Positions 54,147 to 64,000 of a DNA stretch of 64,000 nt are shown here, piece after piece. A program made the translations under genes and the position numbers. The notes under the pieces were generated by a model. The model searched no databases. It saw nothing but the letters and a program-made list of their open reading frames with translations, and had not been told where the DNA came from. This stretch comes from Candidatus Nanohalarchaeota archaeon. Its GTDB lineage: Archaea > Nanohalarchaeota > Nanosalinia > Nanosalinales > Nanosalinaceae. Where the stretch lies: positions 896,001 to 960,000 of the forward strand of contig JALDAJ010000001.1 in NCBI GenBank assembly GCA_022729235.1, given 5' to 3'. Each line of letters opens with the position of its first letter. Within the stretch, counting starts at the first letter, position 1.

Positions 54147-55592
54147 TTACTCCTTCATCATCGGGAAGAGGATGACATCTCTTATCGACTGCTGGTTGGT
54201 GAGGAGCATCACTAAACGGTCAATACCGATACCGAGTCCTCCTGTCGGCGGCATCCCCAGTCCCAGTGCGTTCACAAAGTCCATGTCTATAGGATGTACC
54301 TCGTCATCGCCTTCCTGCTGGCGACGTTGTTCCTCCTCGAAGAGCTCTCTCTGCTGGACCGGGTCACGTAACTCGGTGTAGGCGTTGGTCAGCTCCATTC
54401 CTGCGACGAATGACTCGAACCTCTCTATCAGCCCCTCTTCTTCTCTATGACCCATGCATAGGGGTGTGGTCTCCTGCGGATGATCAACGATATGTGTCGG
54501 CTGGACGAGGTGCTCCTCGGCGACTTCTTCGAAGAGCTCAGCTACTGCTAGTCCCCGTTCATAGTCTGAGTCGAGTTCCGCGCCATGTTCTTCCATTCTC
54601 TGCTGTATTTCCTGATCGCTCAACTCCTCTACGTCGAAACCGCCGTATTCCCGGATCGCTTCTCTCATGGTAAGCCTTCGCCAGGGAGCGGAGAAGTCGA
54701 TTATCTGTCCGCCGTACTCTACCTCCGTGGACCCTGTGACCTGAACAGCTATGTGCTCGACCATCTCTTCTGTCAGCTCCATCATGTCCTCGTAATCGGC
54801 GTAAGCCTGGTAGAGCTCCATCATGGTGAACTCCGGGTTGTGCGTGGTGTCTATCGACTCGTTCCTGAAGTTCCTCGCGACTTCGAATATCCGCTCGAAT
54901 CCGCCTATAACAAGTCTCTTGAGGTACAGCTCCGGCGATATCCTGAGGTAGGCATCCATATCCCGGTCGTTGACGTAGGTCTCGAACGGTCTTGCGTTTG
55001 CACCTCCGTACACCGGCTGGACCACAGGCGTCTCTACCTCAATGAAGTCCCGTTCCTCGAGGAACCGTCTCATCTCTCTGATCACCCGGCTTCTCGTCCT
55101 GAAGGTTTCACGTGCGTCCATATCCACTGTAAGGTGGAGCGGTCTGTCCCGGTATCTCGTTTCCTCATCTTCAAGACCATAGTAATCAGAAGGGATCGTA
55201 CGGACGCCTTTTGTCAGGACCTCCAGTTCGGAGACGTCTAGGGATAGTTCTCCTCTGTCTGTGTAGGTCAGTGTTCCCGTAACTCCGATGATGTCTCCCC
55301 TGTGAAGTCGCTCCTCGATGGATTCAAGGACGGCTTCTTGACGTACCACTGCCTGGATATCCTCTCTTTCGCCTCTGAGATCAAGGAAGGTCAAGTTTCC
55401 GAACTCCCGGATTTCCATCACTCTCCCGGCGATTCTGAACTCGCGGTCAGGCAGCTCCTCATCATTTCCATATTCGACTGCGTCTTCTATCCTGTGCGAG
55501 CGCTCGAAGTTGTAGGCAAAAGCCTCTTCCTGCTCACGTAACTGATGCAGAAGCTCTTCTCTCACTTCTCTTTCAGAACTCACTGGAGACAC
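54147..55592 (-). CDS. lysS: Class II lysyl-tRNA synthetase
   Basis: OB-fold AGRV; EVETP, GGANARPF, LRISPELYLKRL, FRNE..D..HNPEFT and GMPPTGGLGIGIDRL. Confidence 0.96.
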   Translation of the reverse strand: MSPVSSEREVREELLHQLREQEEAFAYNFERSHRIEDAVEYGNDEELPDREFRIAGRVMEIREFGNLTFLDLRGEREDIQAVVRQEAVLESIEERLHRGDIIGVTGTLTYTDRGELSLDVSELEVLTKGVRTIPSDYYGLEDEETRYRDRPLHLTVDMDARETFRTRSRVIREMRRFLEERDFIEVETPVVQPVYGGANARPFETYVNDRDMDAYLRISPELYLKRLVIGGFERIFEVARNFRNESIDTTHNPEFTMMELYQAYADYEDMMELTEEMVEHIAVQVTGSTEVEYGGQIIDFSAPWRRLTMREAIREYGGFDVEELSDQEIQQRMEEHGAELDSDYERGLAVAELFEEVAEEHLVQPTHIVDHPQETTPLCMGHREEEGLIERFESFVAGMELTNAYTELRDPVQQRELFEEEQRRQQEGDDEVHPIDMDFVNALGLGMPPTGGLGIGIDRLVMLLTNQQSIRDVILFPMMKE

Positions 55593-55709
55593 CGGTATAG
55601 CTGGGACTAGAAGGATTTTGAAGGGTTCTATACGTGTTCGACCTTAAAGCAGTCACCAGTCATTGCAGAACAAGATTAAACAGCAAGCCTTAAAAATCAT
55701 TACTTTATC

Positions 55710-55753
55710 TACGAATATCGTAAAAATATTCATATCTGGATACGAATTTAGAA
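55710..55753. promoter_or_regulatory. Pair of LysM/Lrp-type operators between class II lysS and DUF5794-dapA-dapB
   Basis: TACGAATATCGTA (55710-55722) and TACGAATTTAGAA (55741-55753), 31 bp apart. Confidence 0.7.
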
Positions 55754-55787
55754 AGACTATATAAAAGTTAACTCAAATCCTCAAAAC

Positions 55788-56519
55788 ATGGTTCTTGGAA
55801 ACCTTGATCAGGGTACCCGGAAGCTGATATTTATCTTATGTCTTCCTTTAATAGACGGAGTATTTCCTACGTTACTCGTAACAGGAGCTGTTTCAACGTT
55901 TTCTGATATACTGGCTATAGCCATTACGATATTCGCAGGTGCCGGGGCGCTTGCAGTTCTTTACTCCTATTCGGATTCAGTAAGAGATGCCCAGAGAATG
56001 GTTATCCAATCAGCACCGCTACTTTTGGCAGGAGTTTTCCTGACTGCGTTGGTAGCCCCGATTTTCGAGCAATTATTTTACATCGAGAGACTTAGGTATG
56101 CGGCAGGTCTCGCACTGATAATTATAGGCGCTCAACTGGCAGAAGTATCGCTATCAGAAAGTATACCTGCTTCGGCAATAATAATCGCAGGGATGACCGT
56201 GTCTGTAAAGAACCCTTCCGCATTTGTTATTAACCTTGGATACGTGGCTCCAGCACTAGCAACTGCAATAGCCTCTCTTACTCTTCTGTACCTTGCAACT
56301 TTCCTGAGAAATATTGAGATGTCAATAACACGTCTCCAGAGAGGCTCTGCGATCGTATTATTCACAGTAAGCCTCTCGATGTTCGGATTTAACGTACCAA
56401 CCGAGTTAGGACTTGCGATCTTTGGCGGAGCATTCATCATGTCACTTCAAAGACCTGATATATCCGAAATCAATCCTTTTTACAGAATACTAGAGATGAT
56501 TAACAATGGCAGAATTTGA
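55788..56519 (+). CDS. DUF5794-like multi-pass membrane protein
   Basis: LCLPLIDGVFPTL N-terminal motif, ~7 TM; overlaps the dapA start. Confidence 0.7.
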   Translation: MVLGNLDQGTRKLIFILCLPLIDGVFPTLLVTGAVSTFSDILAIAITIFAGAGALAVLYSYSDSVRDAQRMVIQSAPLLLAGVFLTALVAPIFEQLFYIERLRYAAGLALIIIGAQLAEVSLSESIPASAIIIAGMTVSVKNPSAFVINLGYVAPALATAIASLTLLYLATFLRNIEMSITRLQRGSAIVLFTVSLSMFGFNVPTELGLAIFGGAFIMSLQRPDISEINPFYRILEMINNGRI

Positions 56520-57456
56520 ACCAGTAGGGATCTTTCCCGCACTCCCTACACCCATCACCGATGATGGATCGATCAATTACGAAGCAGCACAAAACCATAT
56601 AGAATTTCTCGAAGAGCAGGGCGTCCACGGGATAGTGCCCGCCGGGTGTACTGGACACGCCGCAACACTGGGAGACCAGGGAGAGGAAGTGTACGATGAA
56701 CACGTCGAGTTTGTTTCCCGTATCGCAGACATGACCTCGCTACCCATTATCGCAGGAGACGGCATGAACTCGACGGAACAGACGCTTGAGCTCGCATCCA
56801 GGATAGAGGAAGAGGCGGATATCGACGCCCACCTCGTGATCTCGCCTTACCAGAACTGTCCTCCACAGGACCTTATAGTCGAGCACTACCGTAGACTCGC
56901 GGAAGAACTTGAGAAACCGATTATCGCATACAACGTTCCGGGGCGGACAGGAAGGAACATCGAGGCAGAGACTACGCTGGAGCTGGCGAGGATTGATGGT
57001 GTAATAGGCATCAAGGAGGCGTCACTTGACTACCACCAGATACACAGGATAGGAAGGATGCTCCAGGCAGAAGGAATCGACGACTTCTATCTTGGTTCAG
57101 GCGACGACTCTGCGAACCACTTCGTCTTCGAGCAGGGCGGAAGTTTCGCGATTTCAGTATCCGGGAACGTACACCCTGAAGCAGTGGTGGAAGTATGGAG
57201 AGAAGGATACGAGAACCAGGACGCCGTAGCAGCTTACGAGAGAAACCAGGAACTTATGCCTTTACATGACGCGATGTTCCAGCCCGGCGAGAAAAACCCT
57301 ATCTCGGTACAGTATGCGTTGAATCTGGTAGGATTCGACTTTGGAACTCCGCGGGCACCGCTGGACAGGATGCCAAGGCAGGACGATGAATACAGTAACC
57401 AGGAAGAGTTGAGAAACGTACTTGATAGTTACTCCCTCCTTGATGCGGTACAGTGA
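56506..57456 (+). CDS. dapA: DapA-family (HTPA synthase-like) aldolase with divergent active site
   Basis: ALPTP, YNVPGRTG, GIKEAS and SGDD present; GCTGH and PYQN replace GTTGE and PYYN. Confidence 0.8.
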   Translation: MAEFEPVGIFPALPTPITDDGSINYEAAQNHIEFLEEQGVHGIVPAGCTGHAATLGDQGEEVYDEHVEFVSRIADMTSLPIIAGDGMNSTEQTLELASRIEEEADIDAHLVISPYQNCPPQDLIVEHYRRLAEELEKPIIAYNVPGRTGRNIEAETTLELARIDGVIGIKEASLDYHQIHRIGRMLQAEGIDDFYLGSGDDSANHFVFEQGGSFAISVSGNVHPEAVVEVWREGYENQDAVAAYERNQELMPLHDAMFQPGEKNPISVQYALNLVGFDFGTPRAPLDRMPRQDDEYSNQEELRNVLDSYSLLDAVQ

Positions 57457-57460
57457 TAGA

Positions 57461-58201
57461 ATGCTGAAAATAGCTGTTACCGGTGCAGAGGGCAGAATGG
57501 GGTCTGAGGTAAGGGATGCTATCGCGGAAAAAAGCGGCGTGCAGACAGTTCTGGCAGTTGACCAATCACCTACAGAAGCCGAAGACGAGGAGAACTTTCA
57601 GGAGCTTATAAGTGAACACAACGCGGATATAGTGATAGATTTCACCACCCCCGAAGCTACTCTTCGCTACGCCGAGATATGCGCTGGGGAAGAAGTACCC
57701 CTGGTTACCGGGACCACTGGCTTAAGCGAGGAAGAGTTTGAACAACTGGAGGAGCTCTCACTTGATACAGCGATACTCCACGCCTCGAACTTCTCACAGG
57801 GTATACAGGCGCTCAGGAACGCTCTTCAAGACGCCGTGTCATCACTCCCAGGATATGATATAGAGATAGTCGAGACCCACCATAACAGGAAAACTGACGC
57901 GCCGAGCGGGACCGCGAAGACGATACTGGAAGATGTACAGGCGCAGAGAGAGGTAGAATCGACGGTTCACGGCAGAGAAGGCGAACAGCCGAGAGATGAC
58001 GGAGAAATCGGTGTTCACGCGGTCCGGGCTGGTAATGTGAGAGGAGAGCACAGAGTGATAATCGCAGGAAATGATGAAGTTCTCTCTATCAACCACCGAT
58101 CCGAGTCCCGCCAGGTATTTGCACAGGGTGCTATAGAAGCAGCGGAATGGCTTGTAAAGCAGGATAAAGGATTCTACAGTTTCGAGGAAGTACTGGAATA
58201 G
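57461..58201 (+). CDS. dapB: 4-hydroxy-tetrahydrodipicolinate reductase
   Basis: GAEGRMG, IDFT, GTTG, NFS.G, ETHHNRK.DAPSGTA and FAQGA motifs. Confidence 0.95.
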   Translation: MLKIAVTGAEGRMGSEVRDAIAEKSGVQTVLAVDQSPTEAEDEENFQELISEHNADIVIDFTTPEATLRYAEICAGEEVPLVTGTTGLSEEEFEQLEELSLDTAILHASNFSQGIQALRNALQDAVSSLPGYDIEIVETHHNRKTDAPSGTAKTILEDVQAQREVESTVHGREGEQPRDDGEIGVHAVRAGNVRGEHRVIIAGNDEVLSINHRSESRQVFAQGAIEAAEWLVKQDKGFYSFEEVLE

Positions 58202-58603
58202 TCACGTGCTCCGGGTGTTGAGAACCGTAAATGTTGTCGTGTCGGAGACTCCATCTAGGGCTCTGATAGCGTCGAGAACACTGTTGACCTGCTGCATGCT
58301 CTCACGGGAAAACCGGACTATAAGATCGTACCCTCCAGCGACCTCGTATACCTCAAGACTTCCAGGCATCTCCTCGGAGAGACCGTTTATGTTCACATTG
58401 GGCTCGAGATCGACCATCACTACCGCTGATGCTTCATCAGATACCTCGACCGTAAATCTCTCTATCGCTCCTTCCTCCTTTAAACTTTCAACCCGGTTCC
58501 TGACGGTTCCCTCGGAGACCCCGAGTTCATCCGCTATATCGGTGTAGGGTGTCCGGGCGTCCTCTTTCAAAACATCCAGTATCTTTCGATCAGTCTCGTC
58601 CAT
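58202..58603 (-). CDS. Lrp/AsnC-family regulator (LysM-like)
   Basis: MD.TD..IL..L..DAR.PY..IA..LGVSEGTVR.R; EVAGGYD; divergent from lysW. Confidence 0.92.
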   Translation of the reverse strand: MDETDRKILDVLKEDARTPYTDIADELGVSEGTVRNRVESLKEEGAIERFTVEVSDEASAVVMVDLEPNVNINGLSEEMPGSLEVYEVAGGYDLIVRFSRESMQQVNSVLDAIRALDGVSDTTTFTVLNTRST

Positions 58604-58636
58604 ACAGTTACACTCTCACCCGACGGTTAAATATAT

Positions 58637-58649
58637 TTCGATTTTCGTA
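58637..58649. promoter_or_regulatory. LysM/Lrp-type operator between lrp and lysW
   Basis: TTCGATTTTCGTA. Confidence 0.7.
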
Positions 58650-58708
58650 ATAATATTAGAGAAGTTTTAAAATATTTGGACATATATCTTCGATTTACAG
58701 GTGATAAG

Positions 58709-58885
58709 ATGACAAATCAAACAGCAGAATGTGTTGAATGCGGTTCAAGCTTGGAAATCCCGGAAGATGTTGAAAGAGGCGAGATTATCGACTGCAGTAC
58801 GTGCGGAGCAGAACTGGAAGTAGTTGAAGAAGATCCGGTAGATATCGAGGAAGCTCCTGAACTCGAAGAGGACTGGGGGGAATAG
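58709..58885 (+). CDS. lysW: Amino-group carrier protein LysW
   Basis: CxxCG...GEIIDCxxCGAELEV and C-terminal EDWGE; SD AGGTGA. Confidence 0.97.
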   Translation: MTNQTAECVECGSSLEIPEDVERGEIIDCSTCGAELEVVEEDPVDIEEAPELEEDWGE

Positions 58886-58888
58886 ATT

Positions 58889-59746
58889 TTGCATATCGGA
58901 TTCCTTTACTCCCGTATAAGAAAGGACGAGAAGCTCCTCCTCAATGAATTACGAGACAGAGGTCACGAAGTGACCAAGATAGATATTAGAGAGCAGCAGT
59001 TCGGGCTTTCCGGACCTAAAGGAGATTCTGTGGATGTCAGCGATCTCGATATAATACTGAACCGGTGTATGTCGACGTCCCGGGGTATATACGCCACCAG
59101 GATGTACGAATCATACGGCGTAAAAGTTGTGAACAGCTCTGGCACAGCAGAAACCTGTGCAGACAAGGTCGAGACCAGCCTTACGTTAAAAGAAGCTGGA
59201 GTACCTACTCCCCGGACCGAGGTCGCATTCACAGAAGAAAGTGCGCTCGAGGTTATCGAGAGGTTCGGTTACCCATGTGTCGTGAAACCAGTCACAGGGT
59301 CGTGGGGAAGACTGCTTGCAAAGGTGGACAGCCGTCATTCAGCAGAGGCTGTTCTTGAACACAAGTCTACCCTTGGTCACTACGAGCACAGTATTTTCTA
59401 TATACAGGAGTTCGTAGAGAAACCCGGCCGCGACATAAGAGTACTCGCCGTCGACGGCGAACCTGTAGCTTCTATCGCGAGAAAGGCTGACCACTGGATA
59501 ACCAATACTTCACGCGGGGCAGAATCCGAACAGTTCGAACTGGACGAAGAAGCCAGGGAAATAGTCAGGGACGCAAACAACGCAGTTGGAGGAGGACTCC
59601 TGGGAATCGATCTCATGGAGACCGGTGACAGCTATACTGTCCACGAGGTAAACCACGGCACGGAGTTCAAGAACATACACCGCGTTACCGATGTCGATGT
59701 CCCTGCAGGTATAATTAACTGGATAGAGTCAGAGGTGGAAAGATGA
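58889..59746 (+). CDS. lysX: LysX/ArgX ATP-grasp ligase (LysW loading enzyme)
   Basis: R.DEK.L, KP..GSWGRL, FYIQE, HWITNT.RG and EVN..EFK motifs. Confidence 0.94.
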   Translation: MHIGFLYSRIRKDEKLLLNELRDRGHEVTKIDIREQQFGLSGPKGDSVDVSDLDIILNRCMSTSRGIYATRMYESYGVKVVNSSGTAETCADKVETSLTLKEAGVPTPRTEVAFTEESALEVIERFGYPCVVKPVTGSWGRLLAKVDSRHSAEAVLEHKSTLGHYEHSIFYIQEFVEKPGRDIRVLAVDGEPVASIARKADHWITNTSRGAESEQFELDEEAREIVRDANNAVGGGLLGIDLMETGDSYTVHEVNHGTEFKNIHRVTDVDVPAGIINWIESEVER

Positions 59747-60762
59747 GTGAGTACACCGCATCGATAATAGGCGGGAGCGGTTACACTGGAGGCGAACTAC
59801 TGAGAATACTCCGGAAACACCCTGACTTCGAAGCAGTCCAGACTACAAGCCGTAGTTACTCTGGTAGAAAGGTAGGCTCGATACACCCCGACCTGAGAGA
59901 TGCAGACCTGAGATTTTCAGAAGGTGAAGAACTCGAAGAGGTAGATGTGCTTTTCTCTGCAACGCCAAAAGGCGTGACGATGGAGAATATCGACAGGTAC
60001 AGGGCGGTGGCGGATAAGGTTGTAGACTTGAGCTCTGACTTCAGGCTTAACGATATAGACGCGTACCGTGAATGGTACGGAGAGCACGAACGACCAGACA
60101 TTATCCAGCAGTTCGAGTACGCACTGCCAGAAGTCAACCGGGAAAACCTCTCCAGTGCAGACCTCATCGCAGCAGGCGGGTGCAACGCGACAGCATCCAT
60201 TCTCGGTCTCTACCCGCTGAGAGAGATACTGTCGGAGGATATAAAGATCATAGTTGACGCAAAGGTCGGGTCGTCAGAGGGCGGTTCCGGTGGCGGAAGG
60301 TCGTCTTCGCATGCCGAAAGGTCGGGTATTATCCGTCCGTATGCACCCACAGAACACAGGCACGCCGCCGAGGTCAGCCAGGCAGTAGGTGTTGAAGCAG
60401 ACTTCACAGCCCACGCCGTGGAGATGGTGAGAGGTGCGTACGCGACGATTCACGTTATGCAGGATATTGAGAAAAAGGATATGTGGAAAAGGTTCAGGGA
60501 AGAATATGGGGAAGAACCCTTTGTACGGTTCACCTCAGGCTCCGGCATCTACAGGTATCCCCAGCCGAAGAACGTTGCAGGCACTAACTACGGCGAAATC
60601 GGTTTTGAGACAGGTGAAGGAAGGGTCGTGATTTTCTCGGCTATAGACAACCTGGTGAAAGGTTCAGCAGGACAGGCTGTCCAGGCAGTAAACATATCTC
60701 TCGGTCTCGAAGAGACTCGTGGTCTTGGATTTGAAGGTATACACCCCTCTGGAACGCCTTAA
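59743..60762 (+). CDS. lysY: LysW-aminoacyl-phosphate reductase LysY/ArgC
   Basis: GGSGYTGGEL, DLS.DFR, GCNATA, H.ER, HRH and DNLVKG.AGQA motifs. Confidence 0.92.
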   Translation: MSEYTASIIGGSGYTGGELLRILRKHPDFEAVQTTSRSYSGRKVGSIHPDLRDADLRFSEGEELEEVDVLFSATPKGVTMENIDRYRAVADKVVDLSSDFRLNDIDAYREWYGEHERPDIIQQFEYALPEVNRENLSSADLIAAGGCNATASILGLYPLREILSEDIKIIVDAKVGSSEGGSGGGRSSSHAERSGIIRPYAPTEHRHAAEVSQAVGVEADFTAHAVEMVRGAYATIHVMQDIEKKDMWKRFREEYGEEPFVRFTSGSGIYRYPQPKNVAGTNYGEIGFETGEGRVVIFSAIDNLVKGSAGQAVQAVNISLGLEETRGLGFEGIHPSGTP

Positions 60763-61772
60763 TCCGTTAGTTCTTCGACCAGGTTCTCAAGCACGCGGAC
60801 CGACTTTTCAAAATCTCCAAGGTCCAGCCGCTCACCAGGAGTGTGGTCCAGCTCAGAGTTGCCAGGACCATACGTGGCCATGGGGCAGTCCCAGACCTCT
60901 GCGTACCGGTTCATGTCGCAGGTCCCTGTCTTCCTGATCATCCGGGGCTCACCGCCTATATCCCTGATACCGGAGCGGAAGATACGTGCTATCTCGCTTC
61001 TTGGACTCTTCATAACGGGTGGCGTACTCCTTAACCATTCGATACTTCCGTTCTCCATGTGTTCCTCTATACGATTCTTCACATCCTCTATTTTCTCTGC
61101 TGGCGGTACACGTACCTGGAAACGGATACTTGCTCTGGTGGATAGTCCTTCTTCCTGTCCGCCATCGATAGATAGAGGTTTGACATTAACAGCTTCAAAA
61201 CCGTCTCCCGCGAACTCGTCTTCGATACGTGACCAGAAACTGACTGCTCTCTGTATCGCGTTCGGCTCGGGGCGCGAGGAATGGAAGAGTTCTTCCTCGA
61301 CACTGTACACCCCGACAATAGAACCTCTATACCCCAGTGCAATGCCATTCCAACCGGTCGGCTCGCCGTTTATCACGTAACCCGGCTCCTCCATGTCCTG
61401 GGTCAGGTACTCTGCGCCTTTCGAATCCGTCTCCTCTCTCACGACGCCGGCAAAGTCTGCTCCGGTATTCACCGCAACTACGGCCATCGTAGCGAGAGGT
61501 CCTTTTGCGTCGACACTCCCTCTGCCGTGTAAAGTACCGTCCTCAACCTTTACCTCAAGGTCGCCGGGAACGGTGTCGATGTGCGAGGTCAGGAGAACCT
61601 CGTTTCCCGGAGCCCGGACGTTTCCTACCCCATCTATCCAGACCTCTCTATCATTGTTTTCAAAGAACTCTACAAGCAGCTCCGCGCATTTTCTCTCCTC
61701 ACCAGATGGCGAAGGCGTATCAACCAGTTCTACAAGCAACTCTCTAGCCTCTTCTAGACCGACTTCACTCGT
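60759..61772 (-). CDS. lysK: LysW-amino acid hydrolase LysK/ArgE (M20)
   Basis: SPSGEE, SHIDTV, GRGSVDAKG, REE, GEP, KTGTCD and DHT; start either ACG at 61772 or TTG at 61739. Confidence 0.9.
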   Translation of the reverse strand, partial: TSEVGLEEARELLVELVDTPSPSGEERKCAELLVEFFENNDREVWIDGVGNVRAPGNEVLLTSHIDTVPGDLEVKVEDGTLHGRGSVDAKGPLATMAVVAVNTGADFAGVVREETDSKGAEYLTQDMEEPGYVINGEPTGWNGIALGYRGSIVGVYSVEEELFHSSRPEPNAIQRAVSFWSRIEDEFAGDGFEAVNVKPLSIDGGQEEGLSTRASIRFQVRVPPAEKIEDVKNRIEEHMENGSIEWLRSTPPVMKSPRSEIARIFRSGIRDIGGEPRMIRKTGTCDMNRYAEVWDCPMATYGPGNSELDHTPGERLDLGDFEKSVRVLENLVEELTD

Positions 61773-62901
61773 AATCCTCTATCACCTTCTCAAGCGCCTC
61801 AACGAACTTGTCGACGTGACCCTCTTCTATAGTTAGTGGCGGTAGAAGTCTGAGGACTGTCCTACCAGTCGGTAGCGCCAGAACGCCGTGCTCCAGCGCG
61901 AGATTCTTCAATACCTTGTTGGCATCCCTTCTTAATTCAACTCCGACCATCAGACCCTCTCCCCTCACATCTCTTATGAAGGAGTGCCTGTTTTCAAGTT
62001 CTTCCAGCCGAGACATCATGTAGCTCCCGACCTCAGAGGCATTCTCTACCAGACCCTCGTCTTCTATAACGGACAGAGTGGCTCTACCGGCGGCAGTCAC
62101 GGCAGGGCTGCCACTGAACGTCGATCCGTGAGGTCCCGCGTTTTCTGCTATCCAGTCCCTGCATATTGTGGCTCCTAGCGGGAAGCCTCCTGCAAGACCT
62201 TTCGCAACTGTGATTATATCGGGGGTTACCTCCACTGACTCACATCTCCACATCTCTCCTGTCCTGCCGAGACCTGTCTGTATCTCATCCAGTACAAGTA
62301 CCGCATCGTTCTCTTCAGTTATCTCTCTCGCTGTCTGCAGGTATTCCCGGGTCGCAGGGTGTAATCCGCCCTCTCCCTGGATGGGCTCCAGTATAACTGC
62401 TGCGGTATCCTCGTCAACCACCGCCTCTAGTTCTTCAATATCATTGTACCTTACAAACTCTGCATCGAGAAGTGGTTCAAATGGCTCCCTGTACTTTTTC
62501 TTCCACGTGGCGGATAGAGAACCTGCTGTCCTGCCGTGGAAACCTCTCTTCGCCGCCACTATCTTTGACCCTGTGGTCGCGCTCCTGGCAAACTTTAATG
62601 CTGCCTCGTTAGCCTCGGAACCGGAGTTCGATAGCCAGACGTTAGATAACCCCTCCGGCGCAGCTGATACCAGTTCCTCCTCGAAGCTCTTGCGGACGCT
62701 GTTGGGATAGGATGACTGGACGTAGATAAGTTCATCGAGCTGGTCTTTTACGGCTTCAACCACTTGGGGATGGTTGTGACCTGTTACAGTAACGGCGTAG
62801 CTCGCGCCGAAGTCCAGGTATTCTTCTCCGTTTTCGTCATAAAGATATGGACCGTCACCTTTCTCTACCTGTATCGGCTTCTTGTTGATTACAAATCCCA
62901 T
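61765..62901 (-). CDS. lysJ: LysW-semialdehyde aminotransferase LysJ/ArgD (class III PLP)
   Basis: SGSEANE, FHGRT, EPIQGEGG, DEIQTG.GRTG and AKGLAGG motifs. Confidence 0.93.
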   Translation of the reverse strand: MGFVINKKPIQVEKGDGPYLYDENGEEYLDFGASYAVTVTGHNHPQVVEAVKDQLDELIYVQSSYPNSVRKSFEEELVSAAPEGLSNVWLSNSGSEANEAALKFARSATTGSKIVAAKRGFHGRTAGSLSATWKKKYREPFEPLLDAEFVRYNDIEELEAVVDEDTAAVILEPIQGEGGLHPATREYLQTAREITEENDAVLVLDEIQTGLGRTGEMWRCESVEVTPDIITVAKGLAGGFPLGATICRDWIAENAGPHGSTFSGSPAVTAAGRATLSVIEDEGLVENASEVGSYMMSRLEELENRHSFIRDVRGEGLMVGVELRRDANKVLKNLALEHGVLALPTGRTVLRLLPPLTIEEGHVDKFVEALEKVIEDYE

Positions 62902-62902
62902 T

Positions 62903-63721
62903 CTAGACTGCTCCCGGAGTGAATCCTGTTCCGCGCCCTCCCAGCGCTTCTGTAACAGGTTTTTCTGTGTCTGCATCTGATATGGTTACCGATTCAGCGC
63001 CTTCCTCAAGCGCCTCGCCTGAGGCCATCACTTTCTTGGTCATAAAGCCTTCTGCTGCTTCCCGGGCACGTTCCATGTCTTCCGGGGTTTCAATGTCCTC
63101 TATAAGCGTGTCCATGTCCTCTGGATCCTCGAAAACACCGGGTACGTCAGTGATTATCACAAGATCTGCTTCCATCTCACCTGCTATAGCCGCTGCCGCC
63201 CTATCTCCGTCCGCGTTTACGGGGGTTCCGTCGTCAGCCAGCATAGGGAGAGAGATGACAGGCAGGTATTCCCTGTCCATAAGTGTGCGGAGTAAGTCCG
63301 TATTAACTTCTTCTACTTTCCCAGAGTGTTCTCCTCTTCTTATCTTTTTACGGCCGTTTTCCATAACCTTTACCGCGGACTTTCTCGGTCCAGTAAGCAG
63401 TGCCCCATCGACACCTGAAAGACCTACTGCGTTGACATCAAGATCCTGTAGCCGGGATGTGTAATCCACGTTAAGCTCCCCTGCCATGACCATGTTGAAA
63501 ACTTTCATCGTCTCTTCATCAGTAAAACGGCTTTTAACTCCACCCGGTGTCTCGACGTATTCCGGTTCTTCTCCCATAAGCTCAAGCACCTCATCGAGCC
63601 TGCCGGAACCCCCGTGCACTACTATTAACTCTCTACCACTTTCCCATAATCCTGCGATGTCTTCGATTACAGCTCCCATTTCTAAATCACTGGATCCACT
63701 TATTTTTACGACTACAGCCAT
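62903..63721 (-). CDS. lysZ: LysW-amino acid kinase LysZ/ArgB
   Basis: VVK.SG, VHGG, SRFTD, basic loop RK..GRKKIRR, N.DGDRAA and TDVPG. Confidence 0.93.
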   Translation of the reverse strand: MAVVVKISGSSDLEMGAVIEDIAGLWESGRELIVVHGGSGRLDEVLELMGEEPEYVETPGGVKSRFTDEETMKVFNMVMAGELNVDYTSRLQDLDVNAVGLSGVDGALLTGPRKSAVKVMENGRKKIRRGEHSGKVEEVNTDLLRTLMDREYLPVISLPMLADDGTPVNADGDRAAAAIAGEMEADLVIITDVPGVFEDPEDMDTLIEDIETPEDMERAREAAEGFMTKKVMASGEALEEGAESVTISDADTEKPVTEALGGRGTGFTPGAV

Positions 63722-63778
63722 ATTATATCACAGAAAACGTAAATTTATTATAAATACTCATAATTCTACTTGTTTTGA

Positions 63779-63791
63779 TTCGAATTTCGTA
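63779..63791. promoter_or_regulatory. LysM/Lrp-type operator between lysZ and the divergent next gene
   Basis: TTCGAATTTCGTA. Confidence 0.7.
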
Positions 63792-63849
63792 AGAAAAAGC
63801 CAGAACTCAGTAATATCAATATAAAAGTTTATCCGAGATCAAGTAGATT

Positions 63850-64000
63850 ATGGCGACCTCTACATCCACGCAGGACTACGATCTACAATCAGAACTGGAA
63901 GAACTGAGTGAGGAAAACCCTTATCCCGGTTACCAGGATTCCTGGTCCATGGGAGAGGATTTACTCGGCATATTCTCCCGCTCGATAGTAGGCACCTGGG
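63850..64000 (+). CDS. 5' part of an unidentified gene running off the window
   Basis: Open frame MATSTSTQDYDLQSELEELSEENPYPGYQDSW... after TATAAAA. Confidence 0.55.
   Translation, partial: MATSTSTQDYDLQSELEELSEENPYPGYQDSWSMGEDLLGIFSRSIVGTW

Follow-up and report, generated by a model that had tools for sequence, protein, structure and literature searches.

A LysW carrier cassette and dapA-dapB share an operator in a putative lysine locus of a nanohaloarchaeon

A 64,000-bp stretch of DNA from a Candidatus Nanohalarchaeota archaeon (contig JALDAJ010000001.1, positions 896,001 to 960,000; hereafter the window) carries, from position 54147 to its end, an island of lysine-related genes. In this island dapA and dapB, which encode the first two committed steps of the diaminopimelate (DAP) route to lysine, lie between a lysyl-tRNA synthetase gene (lysS) and a LysM-like regulator gene (lysM), and are followed by a set of genes for a LysW amino-group carrier pathway. 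The genome holding the window (G000) is a single contig (C1) of 1,027,595 bp with a completeness of 95.15. It was compared with relatives among the Nanohaloarchaea, which are given G numbers; order-wide counts are over 70 genomes including G000. Genes were assigned by Pfam and NCBIfam profile searches, bit scores being compared with the NCBIfam cut-offs, and the gene inventory of an initial annotation, made from the sequence alone, was borne out by these searches. The features of the island are the following (window positions).

54147-55592, minus strand: lysS, class II lysyl-tRNA synthetase (NF001756, 610.9 bits against a cut-off of 468).
55710-55723: operator 1, TACGAATATCGTAA, palindromic core, in the divergent promoter region between lysS and DUF5794-dapA-dapB.
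55788-56519, plus strand: DUF5794 multi-pass membrane protein (PF19107, E 1.7e-18).
56506-57456, plus strand: dapA-like gene, DHDPS family (PF00701, E 1.1e-47; TIGR00674, 200.6 bits, just below the cut-off of 206.15).
57422-58201, plus strand: dapB, 4-hydroxy-tetrahydrodipicolinate reductase, intact (TIGR00036, 221.4 bits against 122).
58202-58603, minus strand: LysM-like Lrp/AsnC regulator (PF13404 and PF01037; NF040947 LysM, 123.2 bits, below the cut-off of 180).
58637-58650: operator 2, TTCGATTTTCGTAA, in the divergent promoter region between lysM and lysW.
58676-58885, plus strand: lysW, amino-group carrier protein, likely start ATG 58710, 58 aa (PF21344, E 1.8e-17; TIGR01206, 56.2 bits against 53.2).
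58889-59746, plus strand: lysX, ATP-grasp ligase (TIGR02144, 309.7 bits against 275.6).
59743-60762, plus strand: lysY/argC-type acyl-phosphate reductase (TIGR01850, 340.9 bits).
60759-61739, minus strand: lysK, M20 [LysW]-lysine/ornithine hydrolase (NF003367, 428.1 bits against 363).
61765-62976, minus strand: lysJ, class III aminotransferase (PF00202, E 3.1e-115; TIGR00707, 424 bits against 410).
62903-63721, minus strand: lysZ/argB-type carrier-substrate kinase (NF010661, 391.3 bits against 251).
63779-63792: operator 3, TTCGAATTTCGTAA, 58 bp from the lysZ start and from the orfU start.
63850-64722, plus strand, running beyond the window end (G000:C1:959850-960722): orfU, 290 aa (no Pfam or NCBIfam match).

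The six components of the LysW pathway (LysW, LysX, LysZ, LysY, LysJ and LysK) are all present and clustered. LysW has the zinc-ribbon arrangement CxxC...CxxC and its C-terminus reads ...EAPELEEDWGE. The true start of lysJ is probably near 62901, just past the lysZ stop, the orthologue in relative G056 aligning from residue 26. The dapB stop abuts the lysM stop, so that the slot holding ask and asd in relatives is empty in G000.

According to the initial annotation, the three intergenic promoter regions share one operator, and this was confirmed. The 14-bp pattern TWCGAWWWTCGTAA had three matches in the window and none in 100 shuffles of the window, and it had exactly three matches across the whole genome, one per intergenic region (55710, 58637 and 63779), although the count of three is partly circular because the pattern was derived from these same sites. 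Independent support was provided by the relatives, in which the operator palindrome was found at one mismatch upstream of dapA or lysM in 7 of the 11 loci scanned. One-mismatch equivalents of operator 1 precede dapA in G007, G011, G014, G017, G012 and G030, and two-mismatch, half-site-like matches corresponding to operator 3 are present upstream of orfU in G056. Outside the island the genome of G000 contains 19 one-mismatch matches, located within open reading frames (ORFs) or in an apparent repeated element (202325 and 259649). The latter two fall in near-identical stretches, ATTCGAAAATCG[GA]AGATTTTC, at G000:C1:202320-202345 and 259644-259669, which look like copies of a short repeated element.

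The LysM-like regulator is composed of an AsnC-type helix-turn-helix and a ligand-binding domain; LysM is its best model, yet the score stays below the cut-off. Its orthologues, at 42-57% identity, adjoin dapA in every relative's locus that was searched. LysM controls the lys genes of Sulfolobus. We predict that the regulator binds the operator, which would tie lysS, DUF5794-dapAB, lysWXY, lysZJK and orfU to the lysine status of the cell.

Aligned to DHDPS structures of the Protein Data Bank (PDB), DapA keeps the Schiff-base lysine and the tyrosine and arginine of the substrate site (GIKEAS and YNVPGRTGRN), which in E. coli numbering we take to be K161, Y133 and R138. It reads GCTGHA and PYQN where the structurally characterised enzymes read GTTGES and PYYN, placing Cys and Gln at the presumed positions T44 and Y107. 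The same two motifs occur in 10 of the 11 DapA orthologues aligned (loci L015-L023 and L034/L035), including those of genomes with a full DAP cluster, the exceptions being G030 (GCTGMS) and G030/G020 (PYKV/PYQV). As genomes with a full DAP cluster share it, the Cys/Gln variant may be compatible with DHDPS activity. DapB contains the motif HHNRKTDAPSGTA, aligned to PDB entry 3qy9, and carries the HHxxKxDxPSGTA motif as ETHHNRKTDAPSGTA. The first gene of the dapA-dapB operon encodes the DUF5794 protein, which has about six hydrophobic segments as judged by hydropathy. A paralogue, P0394, is 54% identical and lies on the same contig, the copy in the dapAB operon being the extra one. DUF5794 also adjoins dapA in G012 and G024, and every protein retrieved in atlas and homologue searches was a DUF5794 protein from Nanohaloarchaea or other archaea.

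A DapA orthologue is present in 11 of 40 relatives. The locus of G007 (one contig) consists of lysM, asd-ask-dapB-dapA, lysS-lysA and dapD, all confirmed by NCBIfam. The same core is found in G023, G014, G061 and G060, and a variant form of it in G003; in G007 and the four genomes named first the order is dapD, lysA and lysS, then dapA, dapB, ask and asd, and then lysM. Orthologues of lysS, at 66-72% identity, adjoin dapA in G007, G023, G020, G056, G060 and G061, and ask-asd stand between dapB and lysM in relatives. The dapA and dapB genes of G000 are orthologous to those of G007 and G061 (76-84% and 50% identity) and occupy the same position between lysS and lysM. Because the loci of the relatives share both the backbone lysS, dapA-dapB-ask-asd, lysM and the operator, this arrangement is ancestral in the family.

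Within the order, dapB is present in 9 of the 70 genomes, being broken in G060, and dapD also in 9 of 70; frameshifts are found in lysA of G024 and in dapD of G023. Seven genomes (G008, G011, G012, G017, G020, G024 and G030; loci L120, L019, L022, L021, L020, L119 and L023, respectively) have an intact dapA and no dapB, usually with lysM adjoining. That DapA is conserved on its own and linked to LysM in these genomes points to a function other than in the DAP route. These genomes also had no asd or lysA-type gene where they were searched. In G051, lysM abuts dapB as it does in the window, and a DNA alignment with its congener G007 reveals a clean loss of ask-asd; dapD is present in this genome (81% complete), and asd, lysA and a LysX orthologue were not found in it. 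Loss of ask-asd with retention of dapB, as well as a lone dapA, thus occur without the LysW module, and this is the main argument against dapAB being necessarily coupled to the module. Together these results show that some lineages of Nanohaloarchaea had a full LysM-regulated DAP operon, which is being dismantled stepwise.

Single frameshifts or stops affect ask and asd of G056 (L035 3190-5504; one of them at an A8 run), dapD of G023 (L016 4720-5587), lysA of G024 (L119 2003-3212) and dapB of G060 (L117 9390-10138), which are either incipient pseudogenes or the result of assembly errors. G007 has ask, asd, dapA, dapB, dapD and lysA, with no match to DAP epimerase, and G001, a congener of G000, has a DapF-like gene (G001:C32:2037-2822) but no dapA, lysA or LysX orthologue. 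Near the dap cluster of G003 (L018, G003:C91; 3622-5130, 6705-7757 and 10325-13598) lie another lysS-like gene, divergent at 43% identity, another member of the DHDPS family at 37% identity, an ablB-like GNAT gene and two more M20 genes. A second type of gene with an ornithine/arginine/DAP-decarboxylase fold (470-482 aa) occurs in several relatives, beside lysA or without it, and is absent from G000 (G007:C1:892330-892989, G011:C1:559988-560647, G021:C50 and G056:C60:700-1359).

The LysW genes are part of a seven-gene cassette, formed by lysWXY, lysKJZ and orfU, that is inserted next to lysM. A LysX orthologue was found in 2 of the 70 genomes, namely G000 and G056, which belongs to another genus (76% identity), in both cases beside dapAB. 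The remaining LysX matches in the order correspond to a RimK-like paralogue of at most 31% identity, which G000 has too. The synteny of dapAB with LysW genes that had been noted in the window hence recurs in one of the 69 other genomes. The locus of G056 reads orfU-lysW-lysX-lysY (plus strand), lysK-lysJ-lysZ-lysS (minus), dapA-dapB-ask-asd (plus) and lysM (minus). Its cassette has the same W-X-Y and K-J-Z order, with orfU circularly permuted relative to G000, and sits at a different insertion point, downstream of lysS, where relatives hold lysA, dapE and dapD; lysZ-J-K follow lysS on the same strand after a 94-bp gap. The G000 cassette separates lysM from Metallophos and TFIIB genes, whereas in G056 a Metallophos gene directly follows lysM. 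In other relatives, only an unannotated ORF of similar size was seen next to lysM.

At the amino acid level, G000 and G056 are 61-76% identical over the cassette (48% for orfU), compared with 68% for lysS and 74% for dapA. The cassette is as diverged as the backbone genes, which points to a long residence in both lineages. For all ten genes the proportion of nonsynonymous differences (pN) was 0.15-0.38 and that of synonymous differences (pS) 0.73-0.92; as synonymous sites are saturated, dN/dS could not be computed for this pair and only pN and pS are given. That pN is far below pS in all ten genes indicates purifying selection, also on dapA, dapB and orfU. A scan of metagenomes with LysX yielded 80 loci, all 80 of the haloarchaeal type (GC 0.55-0.73), and no further nanohaloarchaeal-type cassette among them.

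Genes for the steps of the lysine and arginine routes were searched for with hidden Markov model (HMM) profiles over the whole of G000 and over 14 control genomes. Each profile matched 9 to 14 of the 14 controls; the dapD model matched 6, above its cut-off in 3. The kinase profile PF00696 matched lysZ and two short kinases, and nothing of the size of ask; lysY was the sole match of PF01118 (Semialdhyde_dh), leaving no asd. No match was obtained in G000 with the profiles of DAP epimerase (dapF) and of ornithine/DAP decarboxylases (lysA-type), nor for dapD, either by profile or by tblastn. PF00682 (HMGL-like, homocitrate synthase), PF00330 (aconitase) and PF00180 (Iso_dh; isocitrate/isopropylmalate-type dehydrogenase) had zero matches each. 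When ask, asd, lysA, dapD and dapE of relatives were used in tblastn searches against G000, only dapA, dapB and, at 24% identity, a dapE match to lysK were retrieved. A DapL-grade aminotransferase is absent as well (151 bits with the DapL model versus 593), and the sole general class I/II aminotransferase resembles aspartate aminotransferase. The conventional DAP set (ask, asd, dapD, dapF and lysA) was accordingly not found in G000, dapE having been looked for by tblastn only and ddh not at all. An HMGL-like gene was found in none of the four genomes of the genus of G056.

These searches extend to the entire genome what the initial annotation had reported for the window, namely that ask, asd, dapD, dapF, lysA, the homocitrate-route genes and argF are missing. 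The annotation had also listed argG and argH as missing, and this holds for the window but not for the genome: both are present at C1:270368-272867, 680 kb away and next to argS. The absence of argF stands, because PF00185 has no match in G000, which leaves the cell with neither ornithine transcarbamylase (OTCase) nor aspartate carbamoyltransferase. The missing PF00185 protein points to citrulline salvage and to a lack of de novo pyrimidine synthesis. The argG-argH-argS genes form one cluster (G000:C1:270368-274742), with an agmatinase-like gene upstream.

Substrate specificity in this family has been linked to the residues at five positions of T. thermophilus LysX (182, 192, 203, 258 and 259; PMC12998189), which were mapped by alignment to the T. 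thermophilus and T. kodakarensis structures and to haloarchaeal ArgX. At these positions LysX reads L-I-T-N-I in G000, I-I-T-N-I in G056 and Q-I-T-N-I in a metagenomic relative, P0002. According to PMC12998189, the published types are F-I-T-NS for LysX, Y-I-T-NA for the bifunctional enzymes and I-Y-V-GF for ArgX, and a single F182I change (I-I-T-NS) makes Thermus LysX load both substrates. By sequence comparison, G000 LysX agrees with the x-I-T-N-x (192, 203 and 258) of the aminoadipate-accepting types. In 76 of 77 readable metagenome loci the haloarchaeal ArgX signature is [LV]-M-A-A-L, a motif derived from our own alignments, and the 'Ala-Leu' motif described for haloarchaeal ArgX in PMC10433800 agrees with it. 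The same paper reports that in Natrinema gari deletion of argW, argX, argB or argD causes arginine auxotrophy, that a dapB mutant is unable to use aminoadipate, and that ArgX loads glutamate, and not aminoadipate, onto ArgW in vitro. The initial annotation was right in stating that haloarchaea use LysW for ornithine (PMC10433800), but the module of G000 differs from the haloarchaeal type.

The closest sequenced relatives of the cassette enzymes are haloarchaeal arginine-cluster proteins (LysX 59-70%, LysY 56-65%, LysZ 53-61%, LysJ 55-63% and LysK 44-60% identity; LysX is 64-69% identical to the named haloarchaeal matches that were checked). In a LysX tree of 102 rows (quick LG+G4, drawn with midpoint rooting, SH-aLRT support), the nanohaloarchaeal and haloarchaeal sequences form one clade with a support of 100, within which the haloarchaeal rows group together (99) to the exclusion of the three nanohaloarchaeal rows; the next sister clade (95) carries x-I-T-N-V (P0123, P0129 and P0154). 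The simplest reading of these sequences is that the nanohaloarchaeal LysX kept the ancestral LysX/bifunctional pocket while the haloarchaea specialised on glutamate. Judging from the I-I-T-NS variant, LysX of G000 would be expected to accept aminoadipate and, probably, glutamate too. The genomic setting also differs between the two groups: among the 80 haloarchaeal-type metagenome loci none lies near dapA, dapB, lysS or lysM, and most of those long enough have the order argG-argH-X-C-B-D-E, argW and argF not being scored.

The seventh gene of the cassette, orfU, matches the gene directly upstream of lysW in G056 at 43% identity (E 9e-72). Its family comprises 436 homologues, all unnamed, acidic and of about 280 aa, mostly from Chloroflexota (Caldilineaceae), Gemmatimonadota, Acidobacteriota and Latescibacterota, with one Bathyarchaeota record, and has the invariant blocks ILPSAVYL, GEAQHHSSR and ETDDFDP. 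Searches of 26 family members against Pfam gave no model below E 0.02. Atlas leads were sub-threshold (an unnamed one at 0.83 and ATC_hydrolase at 0.79) and were not used. An AlphaFold (AF2) model of OrfU, with a pLDDT of 89.8, matched the H-NOX structure 4u99_A with a VIA Z of 9.7 and a root-mean-square deviation of 4.1 over 172 aligned residues, at a sequence identity of 8-12%; the Foldseek match was weak (E 1.7e-3, TMq 0.36). The predicted fold would thus resemble H-NOX, V4R or Bet3-type ligand-binding domains. An invariant HH of OrfU lies within GEAQHHSSR. Elsewhere, orfU homologues do not accompany carrier genes: in 80 loci (L121-L200), lysW, lysX, lysY, lysZ or lysK was never found within 10 kb, and we observed a lysJ-like aminotransferase in 2, a DHDPS-family gene of 26-28% identity in 2 and argG in 5. 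Ten annotated neighbours were mutually unrelated (a TPR protein, GluRS, a 2-hydroxyacid dehydrogenase, an APH kinase, TraX and others), and this context therefore gave no function. Going by the model, OrfU would more likely serve in binding or sensing than as the missing enzyme.

To account for these results we favour a reading to which we give about an even chance: the island holds two co-regulated partial pathways in a host-dependent cell, one a DAP remnant and the other a module from aminoadipate to lysine, probably also from glutamate to ornithine, that lacks a known precursor source. This corresponds to what the initial annotation had named as its null model, two pathways that are merely co-regulated, and that model fits best with the conventional cluster of the relatives, the ask-asd deletion of G051 and the lone dapA of seven genomes. 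The island would be a lysine regulon of two layers differing in age. The older layer would be the ancestral lysS, dapA-dapB(-ask-asd) and lysM, under LysM-like control through a TWCGA-N3-TCGWA operator; in G000, ask and asd would have gone from the locus, and dapD, dapF and lysA from the genome, leaving dapA and dapB intact. The younger layer would be the cassette, lysW-lysX-lysY, lysK-lysJ-lysZ and orfU, placed between lysM and its usual neighbour, with the operator in both of its promoters. LysX would link a dicarboxylic amino acid, through its alpha-amino group, to the C-terminal Glu of LysW, LysZ would phosphorylate the distal carboxyl, LysY would reduce the product of LysZ to a semialdehyde, LysJ would transaminate this semialdehyde and LysK would free the final product from LysW. 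Because LysX keeps pocket residues of the LysX/bifunctional type, the likeliest substrate would be alpha-aminoadipate, giving lysine, with glutamate, giving ornithine, as a probable second one. As the cell has no known aminoadipate synthesis, the precursor would come from the host or by another route. The dapA-dapB genes may be a still-selected remnant or may have a role of their own, and what the data suggest is that they are regulated together with the cassette rather than that they supply it.

Several observations weigh against this interpretation. The substrate has no known source in G000, which lacks homocitrate synthase, aconitase and Iso_dh. The presumed hosts of these symbionts are haloarchaea, and supply of aminoadipate by the host is an assumption. 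The haloarchaea studied make lysine by the DAP route (PMC8305020, PMC10433800). The specificity call is based on five residues, and their predictive value is incomplete, since motif swaps left the specificity of the Natrinema enzyme unchanged (PMC10433800). An intact dapA and dapB are retained, and lysA-type, dapD and dapF genes are lacking, in both genomes with the cassette; the cassette was inserted at a different point in each, both times next to dapAB, which would be expected if the two were functionally linked. The ask and asd genes of G056 have kept 79-81% identity to those of G007, with one frameshift each, so that the cassette and the upper half of the DAP route existed side by side for long. 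Finally, in the absence of OTCase, ornithine made by the module could not be used.

An alternative is a true hybrid pathway, akin to the second of two coupled routes in the initial annotation, which we regard as rather unlikely. In such a pathway ask-asd-dapA-dapB in G056, or dapA-dapB acting on host-derived aspartate semialdehyde in G000, would yield tetrahydrodipicolinate or 2-amino-6-oxopimelate, an extra step would remove C7, through an oxidative decarboxylation that gives alpha-aminoadipate or through loss of CO2 from a keto acid bound to the carrier, and the LysW cassette would complete lysine. A single decarboxylating step between the two halves would suffice to make them complete. The locus of G056 lends circumstantial support to the idea: both cassette genomes, out of 70, keep an intact and adjoining dapA-dapB at differing insertion points, both lack lysA-type, dapD, dapF and HMGL-like genes, and in G056 the cassette has taken the place of the lysA, dapE and dapD of relatives downstream of lysS. 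Also in its favour are the operator common to dapAB and both halves of the cassette in G000, the large-pocket signature of LysX, the pN well below pS of dapA and dapB, and the presence in G000 of a 2-oxoacid dehydrogenase E1. However, the searches yielded no candidate enzyme for the joining step, aldehyde dehydrogenases and thiamine diphosphate-dependent decarboxylases not having been searched for in G000. A 2-oxoacid:ferredoxin oxidoreductase was not found in G000, and its single E1 is shared with G001, a genome that has neither dapA nor the cassette. The one unassigned cassette gene, orfU, appears from its model to encode a ligand-binding H-NOX/V4R-like fold and no recognisable enzyme fold. 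Moreover, in the absence of ask and asd the DapA of G000 has no endogenous substrate, G051 kept dapB and seven genomes kept dapA without a LysX orthologue, and the sample is two genomes that are kin. A conversion of this kind, from tetrahydrodipicolinate to aminoadipate, is not known to us. Nothing relevant came from literature searches on Nanohaloarchaea, LysW and lysine, and no paper on lysine genes in the group was found; a term search of the GapMind 2026 paper (PMC13759103) gave nothing on LysW or aminoadipate.

A further alternative, slightly less probable, is that the cassette is an ArgW-type pathway leading from glutamate to ornithine only, and that the lysine-gene neighbourhood and the LysM operator are accidental or reflect cross-regulation. 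The haloarchaeal arginine-cluster relatives of the enzymes fit this proposal, as do the presence of argG-argH and the availability of glutamate, the only candidate substrate that the cell can be assumed to have. In Natrinema the pathway serves arginine alone (PMC10433800). As in ArgX, the residue at 182 is aliphatic (L or I), and F182I alone is reported to let Thermus LysX load glutamate (PMC12998189). On the other hand, ornithine cannot become citrulline without OTCase, and the LysX signature differs from the haloarchaeal one at four of five positions and equals the LysX types at 192, 203 and 258. The module branches outside the haloarchaeal clade, none of the 80 haloarchaeal-type loci lies near dapA, dapB, lysS or lysM, and argG-argH are 680 kb away in G000. 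In addition, lysZ-J-K of G056 follow lysS on the same strand after only 94 bp.

The initial annotation had also matched the LysW genes one by one with the missing DAP steps, and had proposed that LysX loads aspartate onto LysW, that LysZ and LysY replace Ask and Asd, that DapA and DapB use the carrier-bound semialdehyde and that LysJ and LysK then yield LL-diaminopimelate. The correspondences at the family level are real (AA kinase, semialdehyde dehydrogenase, class III aminotransferase and M20 hydrolase), and ask and asd are missing from G000, where the cassette lies beyond their empty slot. The route built on these correspondences is nevertheless highly improbable. Its product would still need DapF and LysA, both absent, and the pocket residues of LysX are of the type that takes a longer, not a shorter, substrate. 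G056 has the cassette together with ask-asd, and G051 lost ask-asd without having a LysX orthologue. On chemical grounds, ring closure after the DapA reaction should require a free amino group, and DapB reduces the cyclic product, so that an N-blocked semialdehyde could not cyclise to the substrate of DapB. Equally remote is a replacement of DapD, DapC and DapE by LysW, LysX, LysJ and LysK, which would protect, transaminate and deprotect 2-amino-6-oxopimelate to LL-diaminopimelate: dapD is absent, the cassette has the dapD/dapE/lysA position in G056 and E. coli ArgD doubling as DapC is a precedent (PMC10433800), but the conserved LysZ and LysY would be left without a role, there is no DapF or LysA to reach lysine, and this archaeon has no apparent need for diaminopimelate itself.

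The two half-pathways of the island, with no known join or precursor source, constitute a testable metabolic gap, which would stand either for dependence on the host for an unusual metabolite or for a new biochemical link. To our knowledge, Nanohaloarchaea are usually described as lacking amino acid synthesis. A hybrid, if true, would be a third way to lysine that replaces DapD/C/E/F/LysA and makes the homocitrate branch unnecessary, and the OrfU protein, H-NOX-like in its model, would then be an accessory or a sensor of the cassette. In any case, orfU defines an uncharacterised and widespread protein family with a confident predicted fold. Being a sister of the arginine module with lysine-type residues, the nanohaloarchaeal cassette also bears on how carrier pathways specialise for lysine or arginine, a question addressed in PMC12998189 and PMC10433800.

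Among known systems, amino-group-carrier pathways of Streptomyces secondary metabolism extend a carrier-bound semialdehyde by C-C bond formation. The cassette has in common with them only the idea of a LysW-type carrier that delivers a semialdehyde to a C-C bond-forming enzyme; it contains no transketolase-type or other extension enzyme, and DapA presumably needs a free amino group. The conventional succinylase DAP cluster of G007, G061 and Halobacteria has dapA and dapB that, in G007 and G061, are orthologous to those of G000, at the same position and with the same operator. Unlike this cluster, G000 has no ask, asd, dapD, dapF or lysA, and only the first two committed steps remain. As in the LysW lysine pathway of Thermus thermophilus and the bifunctional pathways of Thermococcus kodakarensis and Sulfolobus, there are six components, with LysW, LysX, LysK and LysZ above the cut-offs; further features in common with these pathways are a LysW ending in EDWGE, a LysX with a GSWGR stretch and x-I-T-N-x, and an adjacent LysM-like Lrp regulator. 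Unlike in these organisms, genes for making aminoadipate are lacking, the order is W-X-Y and K-J-Z in two convergent halves with orfU as a seventh gene, and the host is a DPANN symbiont of roughly 1 Mb. The nanohaloarchaeal LysX combines Ile at 259 with Leu or Ile at 182, which is outside the types published in PMC12998189.

The nearest relative in sequence is the halobacterial ArgW pathway (Natrinema gari J7-2 and Haloferax volcanii), with which the module forms one LysX clade (SH-aLRT 100). The C-terminus of LysW in G000, APELEEDWGE, is identical to the peptide reported for NgArgW, and the pathways part at the ligase, since haloarchaeal ArgX with [LV]-M-A-A-L takes glutamate only (PMC10433800), whereas G000 LysX has L-I-T-N-I. 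They also part in their neighbours: the same source places the haloarchaeal genes in an arg cluster including argF, whereas in G000 lysS, dapAB and lysM, and no argF, are found. In summary, three features set this island apart from the systems described: a nanohaloarchaeal carrier cassette of the lysine type whose sister is the arginine module of haloarchaea, the recruitment of this cassette into a LysM-dap regulon that is eroding, and a conserved seventh cassette gene of no assigned family.

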